Shown: positions 11,085 to 30,105, numbered from the stretch's first letter. The stretch: 35,306 nucleotides of DNA from an uncultured Bacteroidales bacterium (GCA_964495025.1 CAZBUF010000557.1:1-35306), one strand, 5' to 3'. Notes: a model not told the origin generated them from the sequence alone. Program-made: numbers and translations.

Positions 11085-14000
11085 CTAATTGCTTTTATTC
11101 TCAGAATATAATGAAGGCAGTGTTTTATACTCAGCTTTAAAGTGTTTTGCGAAGTATTTAGGGTTATTAAAACCGACAGTGTAGGCAATTTCCGAAACAG
11201 ATAACTGGCTTTTCTTAAGCAGCTGAGCAGCTCTTTTCAAACGTATTAATCGTATAAACTCAATGGGGGTTTTTCCTGTGAGGTAAGATAATTTTTTATA
11301 TAAATGGACACGGCTCATTGCCATCTCGCGGCTAAACTGTCTTACGGAGAAATCGGGCTCAGAAATATTCTTTTCAACAACATCAAGAGCTTTTCGTATT
11401 AACTTTTCATCTAATGATGTAATGCTGATATCCCCCGGCTGGATTTTTATTTGTTTGAGGTAATCTTCCCTAAGAGCTTTTCTGAGAGAAATAAGGTTGC
11501 TTATCCTCGATTGCAGTATTTCAAATGAGAACGGTTTTGTAATATAATCATCAGCTCCTGATTCAAAGCCCTCTATCTTTTGTTTTTCTGTTGCCCTTGC
11601 AGTAAGGAGGATAACAGGAATATGAGATGTTTTCTGATGACTTTTAACTTTGCGGCATAATTCTATGCCATCTCCTTCTGACATTATGATATCGCTGACA
11701 ATAAGATCAGGGACAGAGTGAACAGCTTTTTTCCAGCCTTCTTTTCCATTGGCCGCTTCAATAATATTATAATGCTGTAAAAGATTGTCTTTAAGGTAAA
11801 AACGGAAATCCTCATTGTCTTCAACAAGCAGTATCAAAGGCTTCTTATGATCTATCCTGTTTCTTTTAAGGCGGCTTGTTATATTATGTTGTTCTGAACC
11901 GGCATGCGACTTAGCTGACATATCAACAGATGTTTGCTCTGCAATATATTCATCAGCACTTCTCACAGGCAGCAATACAGCAAAACTGCTGCCTTTGTCA
12001 GGCTGGCTGTTTATAGAAATCTCACCCCCGTGAAGTTTTACAAATTCTTTGGTTAATGCAAGTCCTACGCCACTACCTCTGTTGATAACGGAACCCGGAA
12101 CAATATCCTGAAAGAAACGTTCGAATATTTTCTCATGCTTATCGGAAGGTATCCCTATACCTGTGTCGGTTACAGTTATTTCGAACCATCCGGGCCTGCT
12201 AGTCGTATTTTTCTTTTCATCGGCAGGATTTGCACTTATGGTTATGCTACCGTGCTCGTGAGTGAATTTAAAGGCATTTGAAAGAAGGTTATATAAGATC
12301 TTTTCGAGCTTATCCTGATCAAATATCATATTTAAATTATCAATGCCTGCCTGTATTTTAAAATCGATCTTTTTCTTATCTGCAAGATCTGAAAATGATT
12401 CGGACACTTCCTTTATAATACTTATAATATCACCTTCAGTGGGATTATACCTGAACTCTTCCACTTCCATTTTTCTGAAATCAAGCAACTGGTTGGCAAG
12501 GTTTAGTAATCTTTTTGCATTCCTGGAGATCATTAAAAACTGATGTTTCTGATCAGGGTCCCTGGTGTTACCTAATACTTTATTAACAGGATCAATAATA
12601 AGTGACAGGGGTGTTCTGAATTCATGGCTGATATTTGTAAAGAACTTGATTTTCATCATGTCCATATCATGCATATGTTTGGCTTCCTGCCTTTCCTGCT
12701 TTATCCTGTTGTTCATTCTTTCCCTTCTTACGATTAACATCCGGGAAAACAATAGTATGCTTATAATAAGAATAATATATATTAAAAATGCAATCCGGGT
12801 TTTCCAGAAAGGGGGCAGAATTGTAATACTAAGACTTATACCATCTTCATTCCATATACCGTCATTATTACTTGCCTTAACTTTAAAGATATATTCTCCG
12901 GGATCCATGTTCGTGAATGTTGCTTTTCTCTGTGTGCCATCTGTTGTCAGCCAGTCAGTGTTAAAACCCTCAAGTATATATGCGTACTTATTTTTTACGG
13001 GATGAAAGTAACTTAATGCGGCAAATTCAATAGAGAATACATTTTCACTGTATTTTAAGATAATCTTCTTTGTGCGTGTTATTGATTGTTTAAGAATTAC
13101 CCTGGCATTTAGCTTTTCACCGGCATTAATACTTTTATTGAAAATTTGAAAATCGGTAAAAGCAAGTTCAGGTATAACAAGATTCTCCTTTATTTCACCG
13201 GGCTGAAAAATGTTAAATCCGTTCGGGCCCCCGAATATTAATTCTCCCCGGCTTGTCTTGCAGGCTGCGTTCTCATTGAACTCTTTTCCCTGGAGTCCGT
13301 CTGATTCATCATAGTTCTTAAAACTGAATATGTACGATCCGTCTTGCCGGTCTTTTCTTATCAATAAATTAGAAAGGCCGTTAGGTGTGCTGATCCACAG
13401 ATTGCCATTACTGTCCTCCAGAATTGTATTAATCGTGTTATCAGGCAACCCGTCCTGCATCATAAAAACCTTAAAGGTTTTATCGGCTTTATTAAATAAA
13501 TTCAATCCTTCACGTGTGCCTACCCATATAAGGCCGCGGCTATCCTCAATAATAGTAATAGTATTATTATTACTTAAGCTTAAAGGATTAGTTATATCAT
13601 TGTTATAATGAATAAAACTGTTGAGCTGCCTGTCATAGAAATCTATTCCGTGTGCATGCCCAATCCACAGATTACTGTTATTATCCTCAATAATTGAAGT
13701 AATGTAATCAGAATGAACAGAATTGGCATCCCCGGCCCTGAAATGATGAAATTTATTTGTCTTACGGTTCATTAGATCCAGTCCCTTGCCTAATGTGCCT
13801 ATCCAGAGATTCTCTTCCGAGTCCTCAAATATTTCCCAAACACGATCATCTGAAAGGCTTCCGGGATCAGAAGGATCATTGCGGTAATGAATAAATTTTT
13901 TACCGTCAAAACAATTCAAGCCACCGTAGTAAGTTCCAATCCATAATTTTTGTGTACGGTCAATAAATAAACTGACAATTATATCATTACTAAGACTGTT

Positions 14001-15278
14001 AGGATCATCCGGATTATGTGTATATTTTCCTAACCTGTTCTTACTTCGGTCATAGAACATTAATCCTCCTCCGTTTGTGCCGATCCAAAGATTACCGTTA
14101 ATATCCTCAGCAAAACAGTTAACATCATCATAAAACAAATTATCAGGATCAATTACCTGATTCCTGAACAGGTTGAATTTAATCATATCTTCATGGTAGT
14201 AATTGACGCCTTTTTTGAAAGTACCAATCCAGATAATACCGGCGTTATCCTTATATAATGAACATATACTGTTCTGACTCAGACTTTTATCGTACTCTTT
14301 GTCGTTTGAAAGATATTTGATTGTGAAAGTGCCTTTATCCAGTACGTTGATACCTCCGTGATCAGTACCTATCCATATTAATCCGTTAATATCCTGCACA
14401 ACACCTTTCACAACATCAGTATTTAACTTAATACCCGATGATTTTGTATTTATATGCTTAAAAGACCGGCGTGACGCATCAAAATAAAATATACCCCGGG
14501 CATAGTTGGATACGTAAATCCAGATATCTCCTTCTGAATCAACATAAATACCGTATTCAAGGTACTCACCATCATAGTTTTTGTATAAGTAATTATTTCT
14601 GTAAATAATTTTGCTACTTCTGTGATCCATCTTTTCAAGTATACCATTATGATGTATAATCCAGAGATCATTATCAGGATCCTCGTAAATATCTGATATG
14701 AAATTTGTGAAAACAGAAGCACTGTCATCAGGGTTATGATTGAAATTGAAAGTAGCATTGTCTTTCCTGCTGTATTTGTGAAGGCCGGACACCGAGCCTA
14801 TATACCAGTAGTTGCCGGGATTGTCTTTGTATATCTTATTTATCGACTCATCATTTATATTTAATGCGTTAAGAAAGGATGATGTGTCATGATGAAAAGT
14901 TTCGTCAAGGGGATCATAAATGTTCAATCCGTTGTTAGTGTTAACCCATAACCTTCCGCGATGATCCTCGAAAACGCTGGTGATGAAATTGTCACTTATT
15001 GATGTTGAATCAGGAAGATCATGTCTGAATATTTTAAAATTGTACCCGTCAAACCTGTTAAGCCCTGACTTTGTTCCAAACCACATGAAGCCAATACTGT
15101 CTTTCAGAATACAATTTACCTGGTTATTTGATAGTCCGTCGTTAATATTCAGGTGAGAAAATTTGAAATGATCCGGCTGGGATATGAGCATAAATCCTGA
15201 AACTGCCCATAAGAGAATTATAAGAAAACTCTTTTGATTAGCCATGATAATCTTACTTAGTATGTATCTGACAGTCAT
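11085..15278 (-). CDS. Hybrid two-component system sensor kinase/response regulator (HTCS): periplasmic beta-propeller repeats + Y_Y_Y, TM, HisKA, HATPase, REC, AraC HTH.
   Basis: Many Reg_prop-like repeats (LWIGT, IWIGT, LWVGT). TM segment (IAFLIYIILIISILLF). H-box FTNISHEFRTPLSLI. ATPase G-boxes (VTDTGIGIP, GSGVGLAL). Receiver domain (ILLVEDNEDF...DLIVSDIIM...LLTA). AraC HTH (VSEIAYTVGFNNPKYFAKHFK). The start could instead be Met12 (MANQKSF, about 15245). Confidence 0.95.
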   Translation of the reverse strand: MTVRYILSKIIMANQKSFLIILLWAVSGFMLISQPDHFKFSHLNINDGLSNNQVNCILKDSIGFMWFGTKSGLNRFDGYNFKIFRHDLPDSTSISDNFITSVFEDHRGRLWVNTNNGLNIYDPLDETFHHDTSSFLNALNINDESINKIYKDNPGNYWYIGSVSGLHKYSRKDNATFNFNHNPDDSASVFTNFISDIYEDPDNDLWIIHHNGILEKMDHRSSKIIYRNNYLYKNYDGEYLEYGIYVDSEGDIWIYVSNYARGIFYFDASRRSFKHINTKSSGIKLNTDVVKGVVQDINGLIWIGTDHGGINVLDKGTFTIKYLSNDKEYDKSLSQNSICSLYKDNAGIIWIGTFKKGVNYYHEDMIKFNLFRNQVIDPDNLFYDDVNCFAEDINGNLWIGTNGGGLMFYDRSKNRLGKYTHNPDDPNSLSNDIIVSLFIDRTQKLWIGTYYGGLNCFDGKKFIHYRNDPSDPGSLSDDRVWEIFEDSEENLWIGTLGKGLDLMNRKTNKFHHFRAGDANSVHSDYITSIIEDNNSNLWIGHAHGIDFYDRQLNSFIHYNNDITNPLSLSNNNTITIIEDSRGLIWVGTREGLNLFNKADKTFKVFMMQDGLPDNTINTILEDSNGNLWISTPNGLSNLLIRKDRQDGSYIFSFKNYDESDGLQGKEFNENAACKTSRGELIFGGPNGFNIFQPGEIKENLVIPELAFTDFQIFNKSINAGEKLNARVILKQSITRTKKIILKYSENVFSIEFAALSYFHPVKNKYAYILEGFNTDWLTTDGTQRKATFTNMDPGEYIFKVKASNNDGIWNEDGISLSITILPPFWKTRIAFLIYIILIISILLFSRMLIVRRERMNNRIKQERQEAKHMHDMDMMKIKFFTNISHEFRTPLSLIIDPVNKVLGNTRDPDQKHQFLMISRNAKRLLNLANQLLDFRKMEVEEFRYNPTEGDIISIIKEVSESFSDLADKKKIDFKIQAGIDNLNMIFDQDKLEKILYNLLSNAFKFTHEHGSITISANPADEKKNTTSRPGWFEITVTDTGIGIPSDKHEKIFERFFQDIVPGSVINRGSGVGLALTKEFVKLHGGEISINSQPDKGSSFAVLLPVRSADEYIAEQTSVDMSAKSHAGSEQHNITSRLKRNRIDHKKPLILLVEDNEDFRFYLKDNLLQHYNIIEAANGKEGWKKAVHSVPDLIVSDIIMSEGDGIELCRKVKSHQKTSHIPVILLTARATEKQKIEGFESGADDYITKPFSFEILQSRISNLISLRKALREDYLKQIKIQPGDISITSLDEKLIRKALDVVEKNISEPDFSVRQFSREMAMSRVHLYKKLSYLTGKTPIEFIRLIRLKRAAQLLKKSQLSVSEIAYTVGFNNPKYFAKHFKAEYKTLPSLYSENKSN

Positions 15279-15367: not shown

Positions 15368-15404
15368 AGAGGGACAGCTCCCTTTCACGGGGAGTTATCC
15401 CTCT
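15368..15404 (-). terminator. Probable intrinsic terminator of the nickel operon; GC-rich hairpin and member of the GGGACAG/CTGTCCC motif family.
   Basis: AGAGGGA-cag-CTCCC-tttcacg-GGGAG-tta-TCCCTCT: 12 bp of stem with a 3x3 internal loop. It starts 6 nt after the stop at 15410. On the minus strand it is followed by TATTCATATATTTTTC. Confidence 0.5.
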
Positions 15405-15409
15405 CCATG

Positions 15410-16522
15410 TTAAAGGTAAACATTGATCCCACTTCCGTCAAGGAGGTTATAAGGAGCATCAAGGCAGGACAGGCACAAATCATTATTGTTTATTTTCTTT
15501 ATCCGTGATTTCATAACACTTTCTTTGCAGGAGCTGCATATAACACTATCATGTATTGGTGCATAATCGGGGATTTTAACCATGGTTTCTGTTATGGTAA
15601 AAAGCTTGTTGAAAGGGATATTCAATGTGTCGAAGGCACAGCTTAATGCTGCTTTTTTATAAAGTGATTTAAGATTTTTATCATGGTTTTGTTTCACGAC
15701 AACTTTACTGTAATATTTATCGAAATCAGGATTTATTTTCAGGATAGTATCCCTTGACTGCGGTAATGAACAAATTCTGATTCCTTTGCCATGCCTGCTG
15801 GCAAGGGTAAATGCCGTTTTGCCCAGATCCTTGAATATTAATGCGTTATTACCAAATGTGCATCCGGTGACATACTGAACGCCATCTGAAAAACAGTTGT
15901 TGGTTTCAGTTATTGCCACAATATCCTCCATCCCGTCTGAGAATGTTTTCATTTCTTTTACGGCTCCTGAAGCGGCAATAACACCCATAGCGAGTCCCGG
16001 GCATATATGCCTGTGTATCTGGCCGGCATTAATAAGTAATTGTTCAAGGTTGCCTGATAATACATATTTTATAATATCACATCCGGGATCTGCTTTAAGC
16101 CTCCCCTTATTAATTTCACTGTTTATTTCATTATCACTGAATATCGAGTTATCACAGGGCTTAATGTCAATGACAGGTGTATTGTTAATTGCATCCAGTC
16201 CTTCGACAATAAGTTTATTCCTTATACATTTTATCAGTTTTACAGTTGTTATTCCTATTGAGTTCGGCCTGTCAGGACTGCGTGAGGCAAAGACGCCCCG
16301 TTCGGCACCCGTATGTATTTTAAGTGTCATTCTGTAATTCTGCGATTTATGAAAATAGAAGACGACATCAAGGTATTCACAATCACCGATATTTAAGAGT
16401 GCTTCCGTGTATTTATCGTCGATAATTATTGTACTCTGATTTTTCTTTATTTCCCGGTGATCAGCAGGCTCATTAAATTTATTCTCAACAATACCTACAG
16501 GTTTCAATTGATAATTCTCCAT
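15410..16522 (-). CDS. Fusion protein: N-terminal TrmO/TsaA (YaeB, UPF0066) SAM-binding beta-barrel domain, FmdE-family domain (PF02663 type), and C-terminal zinc ribbon. No signal peptide.
   Basis: TsaA motifs: LKPVGIVEN, RGVFASRSPDRPNSIGITTVKLI, EGLDAINNTPVIDIKP. FmdE motifs: HRHICPGLAMGVIAASGA, VAITETNNCFSDGVQYVTGCTFGNNALIFKDLGKTAFTL. Terminal CSSCKES...N11...CLSC. It is the last gene of the nikR-led operon, 33 nt after the ATPase. Confidence 0.85.
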   Translation of the reverse strand: MENYQLKPVGIVENKFNEPADHREIKKNQSTIIIDDKYTEALLNIGDCEYLDVVFYFHKSQNYRMTLKIHTGAERGVFASRSPDRPNSIGITTVKLIKCIRNKLIVEGLDAINNTPVIDIKPCDNSIFSDNEINSEINKGRLKADPGCDIIKYVLSGNLEQLLINAGQIHRHICPGLAMGVIAASGAVKEMKTFSDGMEDIVAITETNNCFSDGVQYVTGCTFGNNALIFKDLGKTAFTLASRHGKGIRICSLPQSRDTILKINPDFDKYYSKVVVKQNHDKNLKSLYKKAALSCAFDTLNIPFNKLFTITETMVKIPDYAPIHDSVICSSCKESVMKSRIKKINNNDLCLSCLDAPYNLLDGSGINVYL

Positions 16523-16555
16523 GCTCAGAACTTGTTATTATTATAAATTGTTGTT

Positions 16556-17314
16556 TTACAAACCTTCAGGAACGATATAAAGACCTTCATTTTCACTTAT
16601 AATACGGACCCTGATATCGTAAAGCTTTTCAATATTTTCCGGTGTTATGGTTTCCCTGCCTCCGCAGGCAAATATTCTTCCTTCCTTAAGCATTATAATA
16701 TTGCCGGCATAGCGTATGGCCATGTTAATATCATGCAGGGCAATAACGACTGTTATTCCCTTGGCAGATAATGTTTTCAGCAGTTCCATAACTTCGATCT
16801 GGTGTTTTATATCGAGGTTGGCAGTGGGTTCGTCAAGAAATAAAATATCGGGTTCCTGGGCCAGGGCTCTTGCTATAAGGACAGCTTGCTGTTGTCCGCC
16901 GCTGAGCTTGTTCATCTCCCTCATTGCAATATCCTGCAAATGCAGGGCGCTGAGAATGTCGGCAGTGACATCAAGATCATGCACCGAAGGCTTCCAGTTT
17001 ATATAGGGCTTACGTCCCAGAAGCACAACGTCGAACACACGAAGTGATGATTTTCTGCCTTCGTTCTGCGGCACATAGGCTATTTCTTTTGCGAGCTCAC
17101 CCGGCGCGAATGAGTGAATGATCCTTTCATCGATCAGCACCGTGCCTTTACGCACTTTGAGTATTCCATTCATGCATTTTATAAGGGTACTCTTTCCTGA
17201 ACCGTTAGGTCCGACAAGAGCAACAAAGTCCCCTTTGGCAATCCGGCTGTTTATATTCTGTAAAGCCGGTGTGCCGTTGTAGCTGAAGACAATATCATGA
17301 ATGGTTATTTTCAT
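16556..17314 (-). CDS. ABC transporter ATP-binding protein, FecE/FepC/BtuD (NiuE-like) class.
   Basis: Walker A GPNGSGKST, signature LSGGQQQ, Walker B ILFLDEPTANLD, H-loop ALHD. Confidence 0.95.
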   Translation of the reverse strand: MKITIHDIVFSYNGTPALQNINSRIAKGDFVALVGPNGSGKSTLIKCMNGILKVRKGTVLIDERIIHSFAPGELAKEIAYVPQNEGRKSSLRVFDVVLLGRKPYINWKPSVHDLDVTADILSALHLQDIAMREMNKLSGGQQQAVLIARALAQEPDILFLDEPTANLDIKHQIEVMELLKTLSAKGITVVIALHDINMAIRYAGNIIMLKEGRIFACGGRETITPENIEKLYDIRVRIISENEGLYIVPEGL

Positions 17315-17367
17315 GCTTTTATTATTATAAGCTCCTTTTTCATTTAAAGATACTGTAATTTATATTA

Positions 17368-18435
17368 CTACCAGTAACCTTTACCCATCCCTTTTATAAG
17401 CAGAAATAAAAATAAGGGGGCACCTATAAACGATGTAACGATACCTACCGGCAGGATAACCGGAGATATAACAGTTCTGGCCAGTGTGTCGGACAGAAGC
17501 AAAAACATTCCCCCGAAAATAGCTGATGCAGGAATCAGGAATTGTTCGTCACCCCCGATAATACGGCGTACGATATGAGGAACAACCAGTCCGACAAATG
17601 CGATAATACCAAAAAAGGCCACTACAACCGCAGTTGCCAGTGCCGCAACAATCATACCTGACAAACGTACGGCTGTTATATTCACTCCCAGGCTTTTTGC
17701 ATGCTCGTCGCCTGATTGTAAAGACTTGTAGTTCCAGCTTTGCCGGATAAAAAACAATATAACCGGAATCAGAGTAATTGCCAGTATAAGCGAATTCTTC
17801 CATGTTGCCCTTCCCAAATCACCGAAGGTCCAGAATACAATTGAAGCAAGCTGGACACTGTCAGCAAAATACTGCATGGCTGAAATTCCTGCGCCAAACA
17901 GGGAAGAAATGATGATACCGGAAAGAATTATTATCTCGGGAGTCGCCCCCCTGTATTTTGACAATAGCAGGATAACGGCCACACTGGCCAGGCTCCATAT
18001 AAATGCTGAAGTTGTAACAAGGTACGGATTATTTACTGCTGCGACATCATTTGACCCGCTGTAGCTGCTTCCCGCCCCAAGCACGACGATGGCAAATGCC
18101 GCACCAAAAGCCGATGACCCTGATATGCCAAGAGTGAAGGGTGAAGCCAGGGGGTTCCTCAATATACTCTGAATGACAGCCCCTGACATAGACAACGCTA
18201 TTCCACCCAGGCAGGCGCCGATAATGCGGGGCATCCTTATACTTAATACAACCCGGGATGTAAATTCAGTACCTTTGCCGAGCAGAAGGCTGTAAAGATC
18301 CTTAAGGCCTATACCGGCGGAGCCTGAAATAAGAGCAGCCTGTATCACTATTAAAAGAATAACCGAAACAGAAATGATAAAAAATATCCTTCTTTTTACA
18401 TACTTCCTGTATTGTGCGACAATCTTATCCGGCAT
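17368..18435 (-). CDS. FecCD/BtuC-family ABC permease (type II importer).
   Basis: 355 aa and polytopic. FecCD-typical segments: RMPRIIGACLGGIALSMSGAVIQSILRNPLASPFTLGISGSSAFG, GGDEQFLIPASAIFGG, PVGIVTSFIGAPLFLFLL. Its start overlaps the binding-protein stop (TGATG), suggesting translational coupling. Confidence 0.92.
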   Translation of the reverse strand: MPDKIVAQYRKYVKRRIFFIISVSVILLIVIQAALISGSAGIGLKDLYSLLLGKGTEFTSRVVLSIRMPRIIGACLGGIALSMSGAVIQSILRNPLASPFTLGISGSSAFGAAFAIVVLGAGSSYSGSNDVAAVNNPYLVTTSAFIWSLASVAVILLLSKYRGATPEIIILSGIIISSLFGAGISAMQYFADSVQLASIVFWTFGDLGRATWKNSLILAITLIPVILFFIRQSWNYKSLQSGDEHAKSLGVNITAVRLSGMIVAALATAVVVAFFGIIAFVGLVVPHIVRRIIGGDEQFLIPASAIFGGMFLLLSDTLARTVISPVILPVGIVTSFIGAPLFLFLLIKGMGKGYW

Positions 18436-19535
18436 CAGAAATCGTTTTTACTCATTGTCCTGAAAATATATGAATCAGCTGTCATCTCACCGTATAGCTC
18501 TTTACCAAGAAACATTTCTGATATCTCATTGGTCTTTTGCTCAACGTCAACATCGGCAAAGCTTCCGGGGTACAACATTTTGCCTGCATACCAGGCATTG
18601 GCCAGAACCAGCTCATAGTTCACAGCATAGTTGTTGTAGGGCATAAGAACATAAATCTTATCATTCATGACAGCATCCAGTGCATTATATAATACTGTGT
18701 TTTTTGCAAGGTCTTCTTTTACAAGGCTTAAACCCGATTGATCAATGAACAGAACATCGGGATTCCATTTCATTAACTGTTCCTTGTCAATATAAGTACC
18801 CTTTACATGCGATACTAACCTTTTGTCAATATCTGAAGCCACATTCACAGCATTTATAAATATAAAAGGGGGATAATACGGCTGTGTTGAAATTATACCA
18901 TATGTTCCGCTGTAAGGAACACCTCCTATATAGACTGATGGCTTGTCTTTCTTCGCAATGGCTGCGGTCCGCCTGTTCAGGTCGTCAACAGAACTTCTGA
19001 TATATGTGATAAGCGAATCCGCCCTGCCTTCCTTATGAAGTATTTTACCTATAAGCTGAAGAGAGGCGAAAAGGATATCCCTGTGAGTGCCGAATTCGGG
19101 ACATTCGAGTGCCACCACGGGAATACCTGTTTTTTTCTGAAGATCATCGGCATCACCGGTAGTGGTGTAGGTAATAAATATAACATCCGGTTGCGATTTT
19201 AAGATCAATTCGGCATCTCCGCCCATTATTGGTCCTAATGACGGCAAATCATACAATTCAGGATGTGCCGTAAGATAAGGCCTGCTACCTCTCCTTTCGG
19301 CTTCTTCAATGCCGGCAACCATATCCGAAGCATCCATATATATCAGTAAACGCAAAGCCCCTGCCCGCAATCCTGCGATCTTTTTTACCGCTGAAGGAAC
19401 ATACACCTCTCTGCCAAGCATATCTTTTACAGCGGCCATCCCCGCCTGATCCGAGGGGGCCCGGCCGGTGCAGCCTGTTATGAATATAACCGGCATGAAC
19501 AATATAAGTGTCCTTATTTTATATATCTGCAGCAT
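18435..19535 (-). CDS. Periplasmic substrate-binding lipoprotein of the Fe-siderophore/cobalamin/heme (cluster A, Peripla_BP_2; CeuE/NiuB-like) class.
   Basis: I place the start at Met34 of the listed ORF (MLQIYKIRTLILFMPVIFITGCTG, a lipobox). Its ATG at 19535-19533 lies 1 nt after the receptor stop (19537). The longer 19634 start would overlap the receptor gene. Peripla_BP_2-like features: KKIAGLRAGALRLL, PDVIFITY, WNPDVLFID. Confidence 0.85.
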   Translation of the reverse strand: MLQIYKIRTLILFMPVIFITGCTGRAPSDQAGMAAVKDMLGREVYVPSAVKKIAGLRAGALRLLIYMDASDMVAGIEEAERRGSRPYLTAHPELYDLPSLGPIMGGDAELILKSQPDVIFITYTTTGDADDLQKKTGIPVVALECPEFGTHRDILFASLQLIGKILHKEGRADSLITYIRSSVDDLNRRTAAIAKKDKPSVYIGGVPYSGTYGIISTQPYYPPFIFINAVNVASDIDKRLVSHVKGTYIDKEQLMKWNPDVLFIDQSGLSLVKEDLAKNTVLYNALDAVMNDKIYVLMPYNNYAVNYELVLANAWYAGKMLYPGSFADVDVEQKTNEISEMFLGKELYGEMTADSYIFRTMSKNDF

Positions 19536-19536
19536 A

Positions 19537-21570
19537 TTAAAGTTTGATGGCCACCCTGCCTGTGATAACCCTGCCCGGAGAAATATAATCTGTTGTTTCC
19601 ATATGTTCGTTGTCAAAGATGTCCTGGACGTCAAGTGAGATTATAAATTTGTCCGCTATTTGCTTTGACAGGCGTAAATCAAATGTAAAATAAGAATCCA
19701 GCTTTTGCGTATTCGCATCATCGCCATATTGTTCTCCTTTATATAATCCCCTGATACTGGCATTAACAATTTTATTTTTTAAGAATACCGAAGCGGAAGC
19801 AGTGTGTTTAGGTACATATTTCAGATATTTCTTTTCCAGGTCCGGCCTTTCTGTAAAAGCATCGATCTTTGAGTCGCAGTAAGCATAATTGGCCATAATA
19901 TCCAGGACATCGGACAGCTCATACGAAACTTCGAATTCTGCTCCCATGATATTTACGCCGGTAACGTTTTCCCTGATATAGATGGCCCGCCCGAAAATAC
20001 TGTCACCTGTTGAAACATAGTACAGGAAGTCTTTGCCGGTGGAGTAATAGGCTGAAGTCGATATCTTCAGTCTGCTGACAGGAAAAATATCAAATCCTGC
20101 CTCAAAATTATTCATTGTTTCGGGGCCCAGCTCAGGATTGGCATATTTTGGGCCTACCCACATCCAGCCTGTACGTGTAAGGTCATCAAGAATGGATGCC
20201 CTGAAACCATGTGAGTACGACAGGTAGGCGCTTAGTTCCTTAATGAAGTTAAACCTCATGCCCAGCCTTGGAGACAGTTCGGTCCATGTATGATCCCTGA
20301 GCTCAGGTGTGGTGTTCCACGGATCTGTGGTGTAGTAATCTCCTCCGGTGAATTTTACCTGGTCGAGACGCAGGCCGGCAATAATCCTTATCCTGTTGTC
20401 AAGCAAAACATGCTCATCCTGGATAAAGCCTGCTATGGTTTGAATTTTACCCTCGTTATATACCGTATCATATGGTGCCGTCTGGTAATAATCACCACCT
20501 TCAATGCTGCCCTGTTTGAATTCGAAACCACCGGTTACCGTATTATTTTCTGTCAGCTCACCGTTTATGCTGAACAGTGTTCCCAAATCCTCTCTTAACG
20601 AGTTCACATCATAACGCGAGTAATTTCCGCCCCTCATATTTTCATTTATATCATAATAATGCTCGAGCTGGTAATAGGTATTGAGTTCGTAATGCAGATT
20701 TTCGTTGCCGCCATTCAGGTTCCCTCGAATAAGGTCGGTGTTAAAATTTCTGTAGCAGCCTTCAGGGGCATAAATCCGGTAACCCTCGCCTCTTTTATCT
20801 CTGAAAGCATCATATTGCAGCTCCCACTTAAACCATCCCGACTCGTCATACCCTGCCCTGGCGGATATGCCGATCTCTTCCAGCGAGCGTGAAATATCAT
20901 AAGGAGTGCGGTTTTCCTTCAGTACATTGTTGTATCCGTCGCTTTTCAGATAATACTGTGAAACGGAACCGTAGTAGCCTTTATCAGTGAGTATCCTCAC
21001 ATTCAAATCCTGCCTTATTGTACTGAATGTGCCGAAACTTACGGCACCAAAAATTTCCTGTGGCTTCACCGGCTTCCTGGTAATAATATTTATAACCCCT
21101 CCCATGGCATTATTCCCGTATAATGAGGAGCCGGGGCCCTTGAAGATTTCGATCTGCTTTACATCATACTGGTTTATTCGGTTCCAGTTTACACCGCCCT
21201 CATCGGAAGTATTTATGGGAACGCCGTTTAATAATACAAGGGTCCTGGATTGTTCATCACCTGATAATCCTCGCAGGGTGATCATCGGACGCTGACTGTA
21301 TATCCCTGTTGTCCGGTTTACATTTATTCCGGGAGTATATCTCAGTATGTCATCAACCTGCTGGGCAGGTGTCGATTCAATCGCATCCATCCTGATAAGC
21401 GAAATTCTGCCCGGCACTTCCCTTATATTACGAAAGGTTTTTGTTGCTGTTACTACCACTTCTTCAAGCTCAATAGTGTCATTCAGAGTTTCCTGCGTGT
21501 AAACCCTTGAAAATGATAAAATTACTATTGATGCCAGTAGGGTAGTTTTCATTCTGAATAATGTTCTCAT
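19537..21570 (-). CDS. TonB-dependent outer-membrane receptor (plug + 22-strand barrel class); putative nickel-chelate receptor by context.
   Basis: Signal peptide, then TonB box (ELEEVVVTATK). Plug motifs: RISLIRMDAIESTPAQQVDDILRYTPGINV, ITLRGLSG, LLNGVPIN, IEIFKGPGSSLYGNNAMGGVINIIT. It sits between nikR and the ABC importer genes. Confidence 0.9.
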   Translation of the reverse strand: MRTLFRMKTTLLASIVILSFSRVYTQETLNDTIELEEVVVTATKTFRNIREVPGRISLIRMDAIESTPAQQVDDILRYTPGINVNRTTGIYSQRPMITLRGLSGDEQSRTLVLLNGVPINTSDEGGVNWNRINQYDVKQIEIFKGPGSSLYGNNAMGGVINIITRKPVKPQEIFGAVSFGTFSTIRQDLNVRILTDKGYYGSVSQYYLKSDGYNNVLKENRTPYDISRSLEEIGISARAGYDESGWFKWELQYDAFRDKRGEGYRIYAPEGCYRNFNTDLIRGNLNGGNENLHYELNTYYQLEHYYDINENMRGGNYSRYDVNSLREDLGTLFSINGELTENNTVTGGFEFKQGSIEGGDYYQTAPYDTVYNEGKIQTIAGFIQDEHVLLDNRIRIIAGLRLDQVKFTGGDYYTTDPWNTTPELRDHTWTELSPRLGMRFNFIKELSAYLSYSHGFRASILDDLTRTGWMWVGPKYANPELGPETMNNFEAGFDIFPVSRLKISTSAYYSTGKDFLYYVSTGDSIFGRAIYIRENVTGVNIMGAEFEVSYELSDVLDIMANYAYCDSKIDAFTERPDLEKKYLKYVPKHTASASVFLKNKIVNASIRGLYKGEQYGDDANTQKLDSYFTFDLRLSKQIADKFIISLDVQDIFDNEHMETTDYISPGRVITGRVAIKL

Positions 21571-21600
21571 TTAATGGAATTCTATTTAGGTTTTTACTTA

Positions 21601-21627
21601 GTAATACTATATAATATTTCGTGTTAC
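21601..21627. promoter_or_regulatory. Candidate NikR operator between nikR and the TonB-dependent receptor gene.
   Basis: GTAATAC-N13-GTGTTAC. The half-sites are a 6/7 inverted repeat and the spacer is AT-only apart from one C. The site lies 31-57 nt upstream of the receptor ATG (21570). Its architecture matches the second box at 22048-22074. Confidence 0.4.
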
Positions 21628-21644
21628 CATATAAATAAAAAAAA

Positions 21645-22046
21645 TCAGTTTGCCCTGCTCATTGTCAGTTTTCCGTGCCGTATACCTTTTACAGCAATAA
21701 GCTTGTCTGACAGCCCTGTTAAAACCGAAGCTTTCCCTTTAACCGCAATTATCTCCATGCAATTATCATGGTCGAGATGGAAATGCTGTGATGAAAGTAT
21801 CACCTCGTGATAATCATGCTGTATATCAGTGAGCTGATTCAGAATATCGCGTTTATGATGATCATAGACCAGTGTAACCGAACCTGCAACGATATTGTTG
21901 CACAGCCATTTTTTTTCGACAATGTTCTTGTTTATTAAATACCTTATAGCCTGTGATCTGTTTGAGAGATGATTTTCATTAATATAATCATCCAATGCAT
22001 CCATTAGTTCTTTTTCAAGCGAAACGCCAAATCTGATAACTGACAT
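21645..22046 (-). CDS. nikR: Nickel-responsive transcriptional regulator NikR (ribbon-helix-helix + ACT-like Ni-binding domain).
   Basis: N-terminal RHH (IRFGVSLEKELMDALDDYINENHLSNRSQAIRYLI). C-terminal high-affinity Ni site pattern HFHLDHDNC (H-x-H-x5-C) with an upstream His cluster (VYDHH, HDYHE). 133 aa is the typical NikR length. Confidence 0.92.
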   Translation of the reverse strand: MSVIRFGVSLEKELMDALDDYINENHLSNRSQAIRYLINKNIVEKKWLCNNIVAGSVTLVYDHHKRDILNQLTDIQHDYHEVILSSQHFHLDHDNCMEIIAVKGKASVLTGLSDKLIAVKGIRHGKLTMSRAN

Positions 22047-22047: not shown

Positions 22048-22074
22048 GTGTTACCTTTTAAAAATAAGTGATAC
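22048..22074. promoter_or_regulatory. Candidate NikR operator (autoregulation) directly upstream of the nikR start codon.
   Basis: GTGTTAC-N13-GTGATAC (5/7 inverted repeat). It begins 2 nt upstream of the nikR ATG (22046) and ends 7 nt downstream of the minus-strand -7 box. It could also serve the divergent 22265 gene. Confidence 0.4.
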
Positions 22075-22153: not shown

Positions 22154-22222
22154 ACAGCCGGTAAGGAAGGGGGCTGTCCCCTCCCTTGAGACAGCCTGTC
22201 AGTAAGGAGGCTGTCCCCTCTC
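22154..22222. repeat. Two tandem about 37-nt units, each forming an ACAGCC/GGCTGT hairpin with a GTAAGGA-containing 12-nt loop followed by CCCCTC.
   Basis: Unit 1: ACAGCC (22154-22159) ggtaaggaaggg GGCTGT (22172-22177) CCCCTCCC. Unit 2: GACAGCC (22190-22196) tgtcagtaagga GGCTGTC (22209-22215) CCCTCTC. It lies in the nikR/22265 divergent intergenic region. Confidence 0.8.
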
Positions 22223-22264: not shown

Positions 22265-23722
22265 ATGAGAAAAGTTCTTTTCCTGATAGCTTTTGTTTTT
22301 CTTTTCTTATATAGTGTTGTGTATGCTCATTCGGGGAAACCCGACTACAGGGTTATTATCGATACTGATTGTGCTTTTGACGATTTCAGGGCTATAACAA
22401 TGCTTCTGGCATCATCAAAGGTTGAGGTGCTGGGCATAACCACCTCTGACGGCACACTTGATCCTGTTGAGGGACAGCAACGGATCAGATCCCTGCTGAA
22501 ATGTTTTCATCACGAAGGTATACACGTGGCCGGAGGGGAAGTAGTGATAAAAACACCTCCCGCATGGAGGGGACTGAATAAATGCATACCATGGACGGGA
22601 GAGGAGGCACAGGGTACAAATATAAATAATGATTTATCAGCCAGGGATTTTATAATCAAGACGATAAGTAATGAGGTGAAACCCGTGACCGTAATTTGTC
22701 TGGGCAGCCTCACTAATATAGCAACTGCAATTCAGAAGGAAGACAGCATCATAAGAAATATTGAAAGAATAATATGGTATAACAGGGGTAATGATATTGA
22801 AAACGGCACAAATTACGGGTTTGACATATCTTCAGCCGACTTCATAATCAGATCGGGCATAAGGATTGATATGGTTTCAAATCCGCAACACGAAGGATTA
22901 AAATATGACAGTGCTTTATCAGATAGTATCGCAGGCATAAACTCAGTTTATGCAAGACAAATTTCATATGTTCATAATAGTGATGAGCTTAAAAATATAT
23001 CTCATAAAGGCTATCTGAATATTTGGGATGATCTTCTGCCGGTATATTTATTGTCGCCCGGAGCATTTACCGCTGACAGTTCCGTCAAATTTCCCGGCCT
23101 CAGATTAGTGAAGCCCGCTGATGAGATTAAGATAAAAGAACAGATAATTGATATTCTTGATATTGACAGATATAGTGAGAGTAAGGTATTTGAAAGGTTC
23201 CCTGCTGATAGTTCATTGTACAGGAATGATGTTGCAGCGGTGATGAATGAAATAATTGATAAACACGGACTGCAGGAGTGGAGACTTGGAGTATTGACAA
23301 ACGAGATACACGGACATCTTGGAATTTATGCAACTGTTGGTGTTAAAATGGGGCTCAGGGCAAGGGAGTATTTCAATATAGGCCTGGACGATATCAGGAT
23401 CATAAGCTATGCGGGAAGGCAACCACCGGTAAGTTGCATGAATGACGGATTGCAGGTAGCTACCGGCGGTACGCTGGGGCACGGACTGATATTCCTGGCT
23501 GACGAAACTAAAGGCAAGCCAAAGGCTTATTTTTCATATAAAGACAAAACAGTAATAATAAGACTTAAGGATGAATATGTGAATATCATTAAAAATGATA
23601 TTAAGCAATGTATTTCTGAGCATGGTAATTTAACCAATGAATACTGGGAATGTGTGAGAAAACTGGCAATTGAATACTGGCTGGCATGGGACAGAAATAT
23701 TATGTTTGATTTGGAGTATTGA
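22265..23722 (+). CDS. Secreted/periplasmic fusion protein: inosine-uridine nucleoside hydrolase (IUNH)-like N-domain plus a divergent FmdE-like C-domain.
   Basis: Signal peptide MRKVLFLIAFVFLFLYSVVYA. IUNH Ca-binding fingerprint VIIDTDCAFDDFRAI (DxDxxxDD) and ICLGSLTNIA. The C-terminal region aligns by eye with the FmdE pattern of the 15410-16522 protein: HGHLGIYATVGVKMGLRA versus HRHICPGLAMGVIAASGA, and SCMNDGLQVATGGTLGHG versus NCFSDGVQYVTGCTFGNN. The CPG cysteine is lost. Transcribed divergently from nikR. Confidence 0.7.
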   Translation: MRKVLFLIAFVFLFLYSVVYAHSGKPDYRVIIDTDCAFDDFRAITMLLASSKVEVLGITTSDGTLDPVEGQQRIRSLLKCFHHEGIHVAGGEVVIKTPPAWRGLNKCIPWTGEEAQGTNINNDLSARDFIIKTISNEVKPVTVICLGSLTNIATAIQKEDSIIRNIERIIWYNRGNDIENGTNYGFDISSADFIIRSGIRIDMVSNPQHEGLKYDSALSDSIAGINSVYARQISYVHNSDELKNISHKGYLNIWDDLLPVYLLSPGAFTADSSVKFPGLRLVKPADEIKIKEQIIDILDIDRYSESKVFERFPADSSLYRNDVAAVMNEIIDKHGLQEWRLGVLTNEIHGHLGIYATVGVKMGLRAREYFNIGLDDIRIISYAGRQPPVSCMNDGLQVATGGTLGHGLIFLADETKGKPKAYFSYKDKTVIIRLKDEYVNIIKNDIKQCISEHGNLTNEYWECVRKLAIEYWLAWDRNIMFDLEY

Positions 23723-23737
23723 CATAGGGAGGGGACA

Positions 23738-23759
23738 GGGGGGACAGCCCCCCCTTTTT
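23738..23759 (+). terminator. Intrinsic-terminator-like hairpin after the IUNH/FmdE-like gene.
   Basis: GGGGGG-ACAG-CCCCCC(C) followed by TTTTT. It begins 16 nt after the stop (23722) and ends 13 nt before the next ATG (23773). Read on the minus strand, 23727-23754 is GGGGGGGCTGTCCCCCCTGTCCCCTCCC, an inverted copy of the repeat family. Confidence 0.6.
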
Positions 23760-23772: not shown

Positions 23773-24483
23773 ATGAGTGAACAAATTTGGGTACTTTCAG
23801 TAACGGCGGCATCTGTAGGTTTTATACATACCGTTCTCGGGCCGGATCATTATCTTCCGTTCATAGTTATGTCTAAAGCAAGAAAATGGTCAATATTCAA
23901 AACGGGTTTTATTACTGTATTGTGCGGAATAGGCCATGTAGGGAGTTCGATACTCATTGGCGCGCTGGGCATTGCATTTGGCATAGGATTATCACGCGTA
24001 AAAGGATTAGAGGGCATGCGCGGTGAGATAGCCGCATGGGCTTTTATTGTCTTCGGGTTCATATATATGCTTTGGGGCATATACAGGGCAGTAAAAAATA
24101 AGCCTCATAAACACCGGCATATTCATAATGGAGTGGCACATGAGCATGAGCATGTACATGCAAATGATCATGATCACACACACAAGAGTGAGAAAGCCAT
24201 AAATTTAACACCCTGGGTGCTCTTTCTTATTTTTGTACTGGGGCCGTGTGAGCCCCTGATTCCCATATTAATGTACCCTGCTGCCAGGCATAATACACTG
24301 GGGATAATTACAGTATCCCTGATATTTGCTGTTACAACCATATTAACTATGCTCATCCTGGTTCTGCTTGTCTCTTTCGGATTAAAATCCTTGCCCTTCG
24401 GAAAGCTGGAGAGATATACCCATGCCATAGCCGGCGCCACAATATTGTTAAGCGGTTGTGCAATCGTGTTCCTTGGATTGTAA
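23773..24483 (+). CDS. Six-TM membrane protein with a central His-rich loop; putative Ni/Co transporter of the NicO/RcnA- or HupE/UreJ/UreH-like type. Transport direction unknown.
   Basis: TM1 motif GFIHTVLGPDHYLPF, which I compare (from memory) with G-F-x-H-x3-G-x-D-H of HupE/UreJ and GFxHAxxPGHGK of RcnA. Central loop HKHRHIHNGVAHEHEHVHANDHDHTH. Second-half motif LGPCEPLIPIL, which I recall as RcnA-like G-x-x-P-C. Family assignment is by motif only. Confidence 0.6.
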   Translation: MSEQIWVLSVTAASVGFIHTVLGPDHYLPFIVMSKARKWSIFKTGFITVLCGIGHVGSSILIGALGIAFGIGLSRVKGLEGMRGEIAAWAFIVFGFIYMLWGIYRAVKNKPHKHRHIHNGVAHEHEHVHANDHDHTHKSEKAINLTPWVLFLIFVLGPCEPLIPILMYPAARHNTLGIITVSLIFAVTTILTMLILVLLVSFGLKSLPFGKLERYTHAIAGATILLSGCAIVFLGL

Positions 24484-24497: not shown

Positions 24498-24577
24498 CAA
24501 GGGGGGGCAGCTCCCTAAAGGAGGCTGTCCCCCTCCGAAGGAGGCTGTCCCCTCTGTAAGGAGGCTGTCCCCTCTAT
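24498..24577. repeat. Tandem array of 20-bp units AAGGAGGCTGTCCCC(C)TC-NN: three near-perfect copies plus one degenerate copy.
   Basis: U1 24518-24537 aaggaggctgtccccctccg. U2 24538-24557 aaggaggctgtcccctctgt. U3 24558-24577 aaggaggctgtcccctctat. Degenerate U0 24498-24517 caagggggggcagctcccta. The 20-mer GTAAGGAGGCTGTCCCCTCT at 24556-24575 is identical to 22202-22221. The array lies between convergent genes, and U3 overlaps the stop of the 24574-26688 CDS. Confidence 0.85.
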
Positions 24578-28769: not shown

Positions 28770-29636
28770 TCAGAGGTTGCTATTCAGCCACTTATACCAT
28801 TCATCCATGCCCTGTCCTGTTTTTGCCGACAGTTCAATGAACTGCAGTTCAGGATTGACCTTTAATGCATATTCTTTTGCTTTTTCCAGGCTAAAATCAA
28901 CGTAGGGGAGAAGGTCAGTTTTATTAATTATACAAAGCGCGGAACTTCGGAACATATAGGGGTATTTTACGGGTTTGTCCTCACCTTCGGTAACACTCAT
29001 GATCAATACCCTGTGACTCTCACCGAGATCAAATAATGCCGGGCAAACAAGATTACCCACGTTCTCGATCATAAGGATCGAATTATCGGGGATATTTAAT
29101 TTCTTTACTGCGGTACTTACCATTTCAGCATCAAGATGGCACCCGCTTCCTGTATTGATCTGAATGACCGGTGCTCCTGTTGATCTGATCCGGTTTGCAT
29201 CGTTCAATGTTTGCTGATCCCCTTCAATAACTGAAAAATTAATTTTCCCCGGCATCTCCTTTATTGTTTTTTCCAGGATACTTGTCTTGCCTGAGCCGGG
29301 AGAACTGACAAGGTTAATAGCTTTAATATTTTTCCCTTCGAAAAATCCACGGTTTCTTTCAGCCAGGAGGTTGTTCTTATATAAAACATCCTGTTCGACC
29401 TCAATCTTTCTGTCGTGGGTATGGGGGTGAGTATGATCGTGGCTATGCACATGCCCGTTGCTACTATGTTCATGATCATGGTTGTGAGTATGCCCGTCGA
29501 TTTCATGCTCATGATCATGACTATGTCCATGTTCATTGCTTTCATGTTCGTGAGAATGTTTCCCTTTGCCAGTATCTCCGGGTTTTAAAACCGTATATTT
29601 CGTATCAGGGTTGCCGCAGCCGCAAGTGTCACACAT
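28770..29636 (-). CDS. hypB: Hydrogenase/urease nickel-incorporation GTPase HypB (G3E family) with a His-rich N-terminal stretch.
   Basis: N-terminal high-affinity site MCDTCGCG. His-rich tract (HSHEHESNEHGHSHDHEHEIDGHTHNHDHEHSSNGHVHSHDHTHPHTH). P-loop SSPGSGKTS. CH motif (GSGCHLDA), ENVGNLVCP, INKTDL. Confidence 0.95.
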   Translation of the reverse strand: MCDTCGCGNPDTKYTVLKPGDTGKGKHSHEHESNEHGHSHDHEHEIDGHTHNHDHEHSSNGHVHSHDHTHPHTHDRKIEVEQDVLYKNNLLAERNRGFFEGKNIKAINLVSSPGSGKTSILEKTIKEMPGKINFSVIEGDQQTLNDANRIRSTGAPVIQINTGSGCHLDAEMVSTAVKKLNIPDNSILMIENVGNLVCPALFDLGESHRVLIMSVTEGEDKPVKYPYMFRSSALCIINKTDLLPYVDFSLEKAKEYALKVNPELQFIELSAKTGQGMDEWYKWLNSNL

Positions 29637-29763: not shown

Positions 29764-30105
29764 TTAATCGACGTTTATTGATTTTACCCTCAGTTCTTTT
29801 CCACGTATAATGTCAAAACCAAACGAACCGCATTGCGGGCATTGTTCAATATGGCTTTCCGGAGAGAACTCAGTGCCGCATTCGTTGCACCTTGCCTTTG
29901 ACTTTATTTCATTTATTGTAATTTTCGCATTTTCAAGCAGCGTATCAATGACCGCTGATTCCAGTGCAAATTCAAGGGCTTCCACTATCACTCCGGATAG
30001 AACGCCAACGTCGATCTCAACCTCATTTATTCTTTCAGCGCCGGCATCTTTTGCTGTTCCGGAAGCGATATCAACAATATTCAGTGCAACTGAGAATTCG
30101 TGCAT
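29764..30105 (-). CDS. hypA: Nickel insertion metallochaperone HypA.
   Basis: 113 aa. N-terminal MHEFS (Ni-binding MHE motif). Zn site CNECG...CPQCGS. Confidence 0.9.
   Translation of the reverse strand: MHEFSVALNIVDIASGTAKDAGAERINEVEIDVGVLSGVIVEALEFALESAVIDTLLENAKITINEIKSKARCNECGTEFSPESHIEQCPQCGSFGFDIIRGKELRVKSINVD

Follow-up and report, generated by a model that had tools for sequence, protein, structure and literature searches.

We analysed a stretch of DNA of 35,306 nucleotides (nt) from an uncultured Bacteroidales bacterium (GCA_964495025.1, CAZBUF010000557.1:1-35306), referred to below as the window, which contains an operon of six genes led by nikR. The six genes probably constitute a nickel-responsive, NikR-controlled system for nickel acquisition which spans the cell envelope, and the operon would most likely let this anaerobic bacterium scavenge scarce nickel. 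The whole reading rests on comparative genomics, namely on the conserved nickel site of the regulator, on candidate NikR operators at recurrent positions, on a gene order kept across many genomes and on the association of the last gene of the operon with other nickel genes.

The proteins of the window were assigned by a listing of open reading frames (ORFs) together with Pfam and NCBIfam profile searches. All six genes belong to the families named in the initial annotation and all lie on the minus strand. The first is nikR (21645..22046), whose product of 133 amino acids (aa) is identified by the profile search as a ribbon-helix-helix (RHH) nickel-responsive regulator. It is followed by a TonB-dependent outer-membrane receptor with plug and barrel (19537..21570, 677 aa), a Peripla_BP_2 substrate-binding lipoprotein of the TM0189/2ETV subfamily with the lipobox ITGC (18435..19535), a FecCD/BtuC-type permease of a type II ATP-binding cassette (ABC) importer (17368..18435, 355 aa), an ABC ATPase (16556..17314, 252 aa; ABC_tran 7.6e-32) and a cytoplasmic fusion of TrmO_N (UPF0066), FmdE and a zinc finger (15410..16522, 370 aa), which we propose to be a nickel-handling accessory. 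The stop codon of the receptor gene is 1 nt from the ATG of the binding protein, the genes of the binding protein and the permease overlap in TGATG, and spacers of 53 and 33 nt separate permease from ATPase and ATPase from fusion. These tight junctions agree with the initial annotation, but the nikR–receptor spacer is 74 nt and not in the 33-53 nt range given there; its gene list was likewise right for the operon but omitted a divergent plus-strand pair and the hypA and hypB genes ~7 kb away. The 366-aa binding protein starting from the ATG at 19535 corresponds to the recorded gene call; the ORF listing gives a longer version with a TTG start, which overlaps the receptor gene.

The distribution of this arrangement was followed in a neighbourhood survey, which the initial annotation had proposed. 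Relatives of the fusion protein occur in 530 species-representative genomes, and the survey covered the best 80 related loci (1.149 Mb). The order nikR–receptor–binding protein–permease–ATPase–fusion is found in 24 of the 80 loci (19 with the exact order and five with one gene more), and 15 loci have the same order with no adjacent nikR. Eight loci contain nikR–binding protein–permease–ATPase–fusion and lack the receptor, and most of the remaining loci are interrupted by contig ends. The six-gene arrangement is not due to chance. The close relatives of the fusion protein all come from Bacteroidales, Marinilabiliales and Cytophagales, both from metagenome-assembled genomes (MAGs) and from isolates, e.g. 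Natronoflexus, Alkalitalea and Paludibacter.

Concerning the regulator, the protein contains RHH_1 and NikR_C (1.3e-32) and scores 152 bits on the NF003381 equivalog (cut-off 105). Its best PDB match is NikR of P. horikoshii (2bj1, E=7e-34), to which it aligns end to end. The nickel ligands were assigned from established NikR structures (a His of the neighbouring subunit, His-x-His and a Cys), and all four residues of the high-affinity site are kept (IQH…QHFH…HDNC, compared with LQH…LHVH…HNC in 2bj1). The initial annotation had tied the identification as NikR to this site, and the alignment upholds it.

Two candidate NikR operators are present, both on the minus strand. The first, GTATCAC-N13-GTAACAC (22048..22074), is 1 nt away from the nikR ATG and follows closely on the box TATATTTG, which fits the -7 element of Bacteroidetes. 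It is the sole match of its pattern in the window (0.09 expected), and both the motif and its position recur upstream of nikR in related loci. The second, GTAACAC-N13-GTATTAC (21601..21627), is found in the 74-nt nikR–receptor spacer; its pattern has three matches in the window against 0.25 expected, and the site itself has no mismatches. As predicted operators, both dyads fit the published NikR signal of δ-proteobacteria, GTGTTAC-[N13/14]-GTAACAC, and its degenerate and reversed variants (GTGccAC-N13-GTAACAC and GTAACAC-N13-GTGTTAC; Rodionov et al., PMC545781). The 80 loci contain 57 dyads with at most one mismatch, 48 of which lie inside the 18.1 kb of predefined regulatory zones, where dyads are ~170-fold enriched. 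Of 25 nikR–receptor spacers, 21 contain a dyad, as do 12 of the 15 regions upstream of the receptor gene in loci with no adjacent nikR; in the nikR-less loci it stands directly after a -7-like TAnnTTTG/TACTTTTA box. This conservation across loci is a stronger argument for the putative operators than the matches in the window.

Looking at the related loci, the boxes near nikR are inverted (GTrnCAC-N13/14-GTAACAC), and boxes of the direct form GTAACAC-N13-(G/A/T)TAACAC are seen near the receptor in L015, L022, L024, L025, L040, L043, L052, L056 and others. Two box arrangements with one regulator suggest either that its RHH domains can be positioned flexibly or that it binds in more than one mode. 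Control by a riboswitch (B12 or other) was rejected, since the Rfam gathering search of the window and of six nikR-less loci returned only a tRNA and one small RNA; no signal of the iron, B12 or heme type is thus found there. A sigma-70 promoter scan of the window did not rise above background, as expected for Bacteroidota.

The receptor contains the Plug (3e-26) and TonB_dep_Rec_b-barrel (4.9e-50) domains, and its translation begins with a signal peptide and a TonB-box-like IELEEVVVTA. Its PDB matches are mostly non-specific ones to the plug domain (Cir, CntO, FoxA, FhuA, ShuA and BtuB); the match to CntO, the only known nickel receptor in the PDB, covers the plug only and is no better than those to Cir, FhuA and ShuA. 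Peripla_BP_2 (2.1e-22), FecCD (4.1e-84) and the ABC ATPase are encoded together, in an order kept in most loci. The receptor and the permease fall below the cut-off of every substrate-specific NCBIfam model, and the NCBIfam equivalogs give no substrate for receptor, binding protein, permease or ATPase, all of which score far below cut-off. The best PDB match of the binding protein is TM0189 of T. maritima (2ETV, E=8.8e-85), followed by 4hn9 and, in third place, by H. influenzae MolA (3psa/3psh), which binds molybdate and tungstate. No CeuE or NiuB chain is among its PDB matches at E<=0.1, and on this ground we rejected orthology with NiuB/CeuE; the kinship with these proteins put forward in the initial annotation gives way to membership of the TM0189/2ETV subfamily; TM0189 is an uncharacterised structural-genomics target. 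A literature search for 2ETV and 9HRJ gave methods papers only. With the TM0189 sequence as query, we found a family that is tightly conserved in Thermococcales, Methanococcales, Archaeoglobales, Thermotogae, Chloroflexi and Firmicutes, whose members all carry the database name ‘iron ABC transporter’; the binding protein of the window is 42-45% identical over its full length to the archaeal and Thermotogae orthologues.

With MolA among the closest solved relatives, the importer might carry molybdate or tungstate, or else iron or a ferric chelate, cobalt or a corrinoid, and NikR might cross-regulate it at a switch to nickel-independent metabolism under nickel scarcity. We consider this improbable. 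The orthologous importers do occur in heavy users of tungsten and molybdenum (Thermococcales and methanogens), the database names point to iron, and a NikR target other than nickel genes has been predicted before, the Fe-only hydrogenase hydAB of D. desulfuricans (PMC545781). However, the NCBIfam models for B12, heme and siderophore systems all remain far below their cut-offs, no cobalamin riboswitch appeared in the Rfam search, and the window contains no fmd, mod or mo-pterin genes. The two His and two Cys ligands of the FmdE domain described below also suit Ni, Zn or Co cations and not oxyanions.

The fusion protein closes the operon and consists of TrmO_N (7.8e-25), FmdE (2.5e-30) and a zinc finger. 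In its AlphaFold model (pLDDT, the predicted local distance difference test, 78), residues ~1-130 match the AF0241–S-adenosylmethionine (SAM) complex (2nv4) with a TM-score of 0.78, and the remainder matches the FmdE structures 2gvi, 3d00 and 2glz; the structure search gave matches to these and 2nv4 only. The model confirms the two folds and gives no information on how the domains cooperate. Residues H170, H172, C174 and C210 are the counterparts of His15, His17, Cys19 and Cys55 of 2GLZ, and 22 homologues all keep these residues and the CxxC…CxxC treble-clef finger. In 2GLZ the site has mixed Zn/Ni occupancy and lies at the bottom of a C-shaped groove which, according to the authors from the Joint Center for Structural Genomics (JCSG), could hold a fairly large ligand; the same authors found that most FmdE genes adjoin genes of metal transporters and that fmd operons account for only 13 of 208 family members, and they had already noted the UPF0066–FmdE architecture (PMC2954224). 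No fmd or fwd genes are present in the window or the surveyed loci, and FmdE occurs here with no association with formylmethanofuran dehydrogenase. In the TrmO_N half, R81, D110 and K121 are kept, the counterparts of residues which in AF0241 hold the amino-acid end of SAM, while the Gln motif is lost. This domain may be catalytic, regulatory or a mere dimerisation scaffold.

The fusion scores 105.7 on TIGR00104, the TrmO equivalog, above the cut-off of 93.25, and the public names of its family are ‘TrmO’, ‘SAM-dependent methyltransferase’ and ‘formylmethanofuran dehydrogenase subunit E’, which looks like systematic misannotation. Taken at face value, the score and the first two names, together with the ‘iron ABC transporter’ label of the binding-protein orthologues, would make the fusion a TrmO methyltransferase that forms N6-methyl-N6-threonylcarbamoyladenosine (m6t6A) in tRNA and is in the operon by accident, next to an ordinary ferric-siderophore transporter and an unrelated nikR. 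The DPRxxY tRNA-binding domain is absent, however, and the C-terminal half is occupied by FmdE and the zinc finger, so that the fusion is not TrmO and the TIGR00104 match is misleading: tRNA methylation by TrmO requires the DPRxxY C-domain, and in the archaeal type, which the fusion resembles, m6t6A was not found (PMC4132733). The gene order with nikR and the importer is also kept in dozens of species, the NikR dyads are conserved, and the fusion follows nikR even when the transporter is a different one. Accidental placement is extremely improbable, and we regard it as effectively refuted by the conserved gene context.

For the mechanism, the company of the fusion gene in other loci is the most informative result. 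In L063 it belongs to a nikR-led operon and is separated from nikR by a dyad, and the transporter is CbiM–PDGLE–CbiQ–ATPase, i.e. of the NikMNQO-type energy-coupling factor (ECF) class. In L068 the fusion is immediately upstream of a HupE/UreJ permease, in L034 (and in L035 by similarity) it closes a hypF–hypD–hypE–hypA–hypB–nikR cluster, and in L038 the order is nikR–fusion–NH-FmdE–His-rich permease, the last two being relatives of the divergent pair of the window. The His-rich DsbD_2 permease is, at full length, next to or near the fusion in 11 loci and directly downstream of it in several, e.g. L041, L043, L056 and L073. Because the fusion is found with four unrelated types of nickel permease, with nikR and with genes for nickel insertion into hydrogenase, it is most simply explained as a nickel-handling protein. 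The same contexts speak against a fusion dedicated to some chelator that the FecCD permease imports, and against Mo/W, Fe or corrinoid as the cargo. The protein may act as a nickel acceptor or chaperone, a role to which we give somewhat less than an even chance. As a separate observation, two further products of the L063 operon (L063:9656-14115) are a 297-aa protein of no family and an outer-membrane channel of the Phenol_MetA_deg type; they might stand in for the TonB-dependent receptor and take nickel across the outer membrane by another route.

The enzyme-like gene, which the initial annotation had listed as an extra, is not peculiar to this operon: TrmO_N and FmdE are recurrent partners of orthologous importers in archaea and bacteria. 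P. abyssi (L083) has FmdE–binding protein–FecCD–ATPase, an Archaeoglobales MAG (L086) has FmdE–binding protein–x–CMD–TrmO_N–FecCD–ATPase, Thermovorax (L087) has TrmO_N–binding protein–FecCD–ATPase–FmdE, and a Thermotoga-like metagenome contig (L085) has TrmO_N–binding protein–FecCD–ATPase, with a binding protein 96% identical to TM0189. In Desulfofundulus (L084) the order is TrmO_N…MinD-like ATPase–binding protein–FecCD–ATPase–class I methyltransferase–NikA-type SBP_bac_5 transporter. In M. jannaschii (L081; L77117.1, 73630-86751) nikR is divergent to mcrBGA–MinD-like ATPase–binding protein–Methyltransf_2–FecCD–x–ATPase, and M. aeolicus (L088) has binding protein–Methyltransf_2…FecCD. Since TrmO_N and FmdE are elsewhere separate partners of the TM0189-type importer, the Bacteroidales protein is a Rosetta-stone fusion; the stand-alone TrmO_N partners retain the Gln motif which the fusion has lost.

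NikR-like dyads are also found immediately upstream of the first gene in three of these loci: TTGTTAC-N14-GTAACAC in Thermovorax, right after a TTGATT/TGATAAAAT promoter, GTAATAC-N14-GTGTTAA in the Archaeoglobales MAG and GTAACAC-N14-GTGTGAA in P. abyssi. The chance rate of two-mismatch dyads is ~1 per 17 kb, as estimated from two spurious matches in the 35-kb window; the three dyads lie within ~100 nt upstream of the operons and are therefore unlikely to be accidental.

In M. jannaschii, nikR is divergent to mcrBGA, which is followed by the MinD/ParA-type ATPase and the TM0189-type transporter; the transporter is interrupted by the Methyltransf_2 gene and by a gene for a 180-aa MJ0088-like protein, to which the profile searches gave no family, and there is no GTAACAC-type dyad. 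The position of the transporter next to mcr and nikR is the one weak hint for the Ni-tetrapyrrole ligand on which the initial annotation had speculated. A CooC-like nickel-chaperone role for the MinD/ParA-type ATPases of the archaea and Desulfofundulus was suspected, but no specific model supports it. In Desulfofundulus (L084 9966-13122), SBP_bac_5 and BPD_transp_1 genes of the NikABCDE/Opp family come directly after the TM0189-type transporter and the methyltransferase, and two different candidate nickel ABC systems may lie side by side. The ABC transporter of M. marburgensis induced by nickel limitation (MTBMA_c10820-40, PMC12350162) was rejected as a relative, because by annotation and subunit sizes it is apparently not of the FecCD type.

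Divergently from the operon, on the plus strand, the window encodes a secreted fusion of a nucleoside-hydrolase-like domain and an FmdE core domain, NH-FmdE (22265..23722, 485 aa, with signal peptide), and a putative Ni/Co permease (23773..24483), a membrane protein of the six-transmembrane type with a His-rich loop (HKHRHIHNGVAHEHEHVHANDHDHTH). NH-FmdE matches IU_nuc_hydro (2.5e-24) and FmdE (1.9e-14). Its DTDCAFDD fits DxDxxxDD, the N-terminal Ca-binding and catalytic motif of nucleoside hydrolases, and aligns in sequence with DTDPGIDD of 4kpo; in the FmdE part His-x-His and the second Cys are kept, and the first Cys and the zinc finger are lost. The permease matches DsbD_2 only (9.6e-09), with no NicO or HupE_UreJ profile match, and its first transmembrane segment holds HTVLGPDH, which together with the His-rich loop is suggestive of a nickel permease. 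For its homologues JGI uses the name ‘nickel/cobalt exporter/NicO/RcnA’ and NCBI the name ‘sulfite exporter TauE/SafE’. Besides L038, the NH-FmdE gene is inside a nikR-led cluster in L011. Elsewhere the pair is part of the same nickel module, and the two proteins probably form a second route.

The window also contains hypB (28770..29636; TIGR00073 283 bits, cut-off 121), with a long His-rich N-terminal stretch, and hypA (29764..30105; TIGR00100 103 bits, cut-off 88), both on the minus strand and ~7 kb from the operon. Their products are nickel-insertion chaperones for [NiFe]-hydrogenase, and since both exceed their equivalog cut-offs the organism uses nickel. No NikR dyad is found in front of hypB and hypA, and no hydrogenase structural genes are among the annotated ORFs of the window.

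From these components a sequence of events can be proposed. When cytoplasmic nickel is sufficient, nickel-loaded NikR would bind the two dyads (GTAACAC/GTrTTAC half-sites, 13 nt apart), one overlapping the start region of the nikR promoter and the other preceding the receptor gene, and the operon would be off; when nickel is scarce, it would be expressed. The TonB-dependent receptor would then take a nickel species, most likely a low-molecular-weight nickel complex, across the outer membrane, the TM0189-subfamily lipoprotein would capture it in the periplasm, and the FecCD permease with the ABC ATPase would move it into the cytoplasm. There the fusion may accept or process the imported nickel at the His2Cys2 site of its FmdE domain and pass it on, e.g. 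to HypA/HypB. A cytosolic nickel chaperone which acts on a type II nickel importer has a precedent, as a multifunctional metallochaperone is reported to control nickel uptake through NixA and NiuBDE (PMC7840056). This chaperone is SlyD, which acts on NiuD.

The recurrence of methyltransferases at the importer raises a different role for the partner proteins. The system might salvage a preformed nickel cofactor or a nickelophore that contains a nucleoside or amino acid (e.g. F430 from methanogens, the nickel-pincer nucleotide or an opine/nicotianamine-type complex), with the partner domains of FmdE, cytoplasmic SAM-binding TrmO_N and periplasmic nucleoside hydrolase, dismantling or modifying the ligand so that the metal is freed. 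Both FmdE fusions of the window indeed pair FmdE with a nucleoside-recognising domain, the FmdE groove could accommodate such a ligand, the residues conserved family-wide in the pocket of the binding protein are Arg, Tyr, Glu and Trp rather than His and Cys, and the M. jannaschii importer follows mcrBGA and nikR. Because three non-homologous methyltransferase types (TrmO_N, Methyltransf_2 in Methanococcales and class I in Desulfofundulus) recur beside orthologous importers, a catalytic, ligand-modifying role is kept alive. On the other hand, the fusion also accompanies NikMNQO-type and HupE/UreJ permeases, which move the Ni2+ ion and not organic complexes. No use for F430 is known in Thermococcales and Bacteroidales, the Gln which contacts the amino group of SAM is lost in the TrmO_N domain of the fusion, the similarities of the methyltransferases to BchU/CpaM are far below cut-off, and the window contains no metallophore biosynthetic gene. 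On balance salvage is quite improbable.

Uptake of nickel by the NikR-controlled receptor and importer thus remains our preferred reading, and several points weigh against it. The nickel response of this NikR is assumed from its conserved residues. Near the receptor, many sites repeat the half-site directly (GTAACAC-N13-GTAACAC, with a 20-bp period) and do not form the inverted repeat of NikR, and because a symmetric tetramer expects inverted sites the binding mode of NikR at the dyads is not assured. The nikR–receptor spacer of the window has no clear -7 box, so transcription of the receptor gene may need read-through from the nikR promoter. No NikR-like dyad is found in the Thermotoga, Desulfofundulus and Methanococcales loci even at three mismatches, apart from one weak match. 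The nearest characterised relative of the binding protein is MolA (E=3e-15) and not NiuB, and the TM0189 family has no invariant His/Cys cluster. The polar residues that all its members share are Arg, Tyr, Glu, Ser/Thr, Trp and Asn, a set that suits a complexed or anionic ligand better than a bare cation. Type II importers also transport small oxyanions. The importer class given in the initial annotation is borne out, but a chelate as its cargo is inferred only. Among homologues of the His-rich permease, annotation as an exporter is frequent, and an exporter co-expressed with an importer would be odd; import is favoured only because the permease gene is co-transcribed with uptake genes in several genomes. 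Finally, the nickel in 2GLZ may derive from Ni-affinity purification (PMC2954224). The parts of the reading that we infer are the response to nickel, the identity of the substrate, the direction in which the His-rich permease works and what the fusion does biochemically.

A broader proposal is that TrmO_N and FmdE form an ancient nickel-trafficking module of the NikR regulon in anaerobic Archaea and Bacteria, in which the His2Cys2 site of FmdE would take nickel on the cytoplasmic side of the importers, the SAM-binding domain (or other methyltransferases in Methanococcales) would modify the ligand to release the metal, and the TM0189-type importer would be a new, widespread ABC family for nickel or nickel complexes. 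This is rather unlikely; if true, the ligand-modifying SAM-binding domain would be a nickel counterpart of siderophore-release enzymes.

Among known systems, the closest analogy is that of Helicobacter, which the initial annotation had drawn and which is correct: FrpB4 is repressed by NikR, and NiuBDE corresponds to CeuE/FecDE (PMC5140060). H. pylori has FrpB4/FecA3, NiuBDE and NixA, and H. mustelae has NikH and CeuE/FecDE (PMC5140060). As there, the operon of the window combines a TonB-dependent receptor predicted to be repressed by NikR with a Peripla_BP_2/FecCD type II importer, and a secondary permease runs in parallel (NixA in Helicobacter, the His-rich permease here). The genes of Helicobacter are scattered, whereas those of the window form one nikR-led operon in a Bacteroidota background, with a GTAACAC-type operator, a TM0189-type binding protein, a TrmO_N–FmdE gene and a secreted NH–FmdE gene. 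The system would accordingly work like NiuBDE, but by its sequences it is not a member of the NiuBDE family.

The NikR regulons of δ-proteobacteria (Rodionov et al. 2004) share the half-sites, the spacing and the position of nikR beside the target transporter; their targets are NikMNQO/NikKMLQO, in contrast to the receptor and FecCD-type importer found here, and many of the Bacteroidales sites are direct repeats. E. coli also has the gene of a nickel-dependent RHH repressor beside that of an ABC nickel importer, but NikABCDE is of the type I peptide/opine family (SBP_bac_5), with the operator GTATGA-N16-TCATAC and no dedicated outer-membrane receptor. The ligand of E. coli NikABCDE is probably a complex of the Ni-(L-His)2 type. 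The staphylopine/pseudopaline systems resemble the operon in their TonB-dependent receptor (CntO of P. aeruginosa), which takes up a metal–metallophore complex; unlike them, the operon is not accompanied by metallophore biosynthesis genes (CntL/CntM). Those systems are regulated by Zur, not by NikR. MolBC-A (HI1470-72) and BtuB–BtuFCD are likewise type II importers with Peripla_BP_2, and BtuB–BtuFCD follows the same receptor-plus-importer logic, but here no molybdate or B12 model reaches its cut-off, there is no B12 riboswitch, and regulation would be by NikR.

Concerning the last gene, the FmdE part shares with 2GLZ, 2GVI and 3D00 the alpha+beta core, the FHGHxC…C site and the C-terminal treble-clef zinc finger; the structural work did not make the link to nickel and NikR, and the context of formylmethanofuran dehydrogenase is missing here. 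With TrmO/YaeB, a class VIII SAM methyltransferase, and AF0241 (2NV4) the fusion shares the beta-barrel SAM-binding N-domain and three of the four SAM contacts, but it lacks the DPRxxY C-domain and the Gln contact, and its context is nickel transport instead of translation.

The general logic of NikR, receptor and type II importer is thus already known from Helicobacter. New are the single nikR-led operon of receptor and type II importer in Bacteroidota, the TM0189-type importer as a probable target of NikR across Archaea and Bacteria, and the placement of FmdE and of TrmO/YaeB proteins with no C-domain in the nickel regulon. No paper that draws these connections turned up in the literature searched, although an earlier mention in Rodionov et al. 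2006 is not excluded. A 2009 comparative survey met with almost no known nickel transporters in Bacteroidota, only one UreH being assigned as nickel-specific among 30 genomes (PMC2667541), and the operon offers a candidate nickel route for this phylum in at least several dozen of the surveyed species. Kimura et al. left the C-domain-less YaeB/TrmO proteins unexplained, and FmdE is described as ‘implicated in methanogenesis’ yet mostly lies outside fmd operons; the gene context points both to nickel. Also, what is labelled ‘iron ABC transporter’ in Thermococcales, methanogens and Thermotogae, the transporter of the TM0189/MJ0085 type, may be a nickel system under the control of NikR.

Several other features of the window are of less direct concern. 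A GC hairpin on the minus strand (AGGGAGCTGTCCCT then CTTATTCATA; 15370..15383), ~25 nt past the stop codon of the fusion gene, is a possible terminator of the operon, tentatively so in view of its weak T-run. A GC-rich, hairpin-forming repeat, GGCTGTCCCCTC (…AAGGAGGCTGTCCCCTC…), occurs in seven copies against 1.3 expected, at 22172-22220, 23729-23749 and 24523-24574, with a weaker copy at 15370-15383. All copies are intergenic and bracket the NH-FmdE and His-rich permease genes, and three are 20-nt tandem copies after the permease gene; they could be elements like repetitive extragenic palindromes (REP), terminators or marks of an inserted cassette. Directly downstream of the nickel operon lies a complete and unrelated polysaccharide-utilisation locus on the minus strand (1829-15278), which encodes a hybrid two-component sensor (1397 aa), a GH31 enzyme, SusC-like and SusD-like proteins and an SGBP-B-like protein with a xyloglucan-binding domain. 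The other flank contains, on the minus strand, a TPR–SpoIIE phosphatase (24574-26688) and a MeaB-type G3E GTPase of the B12-mutase chaperone family (32179-33267), both of which are probably unrelated to the nickel genes.

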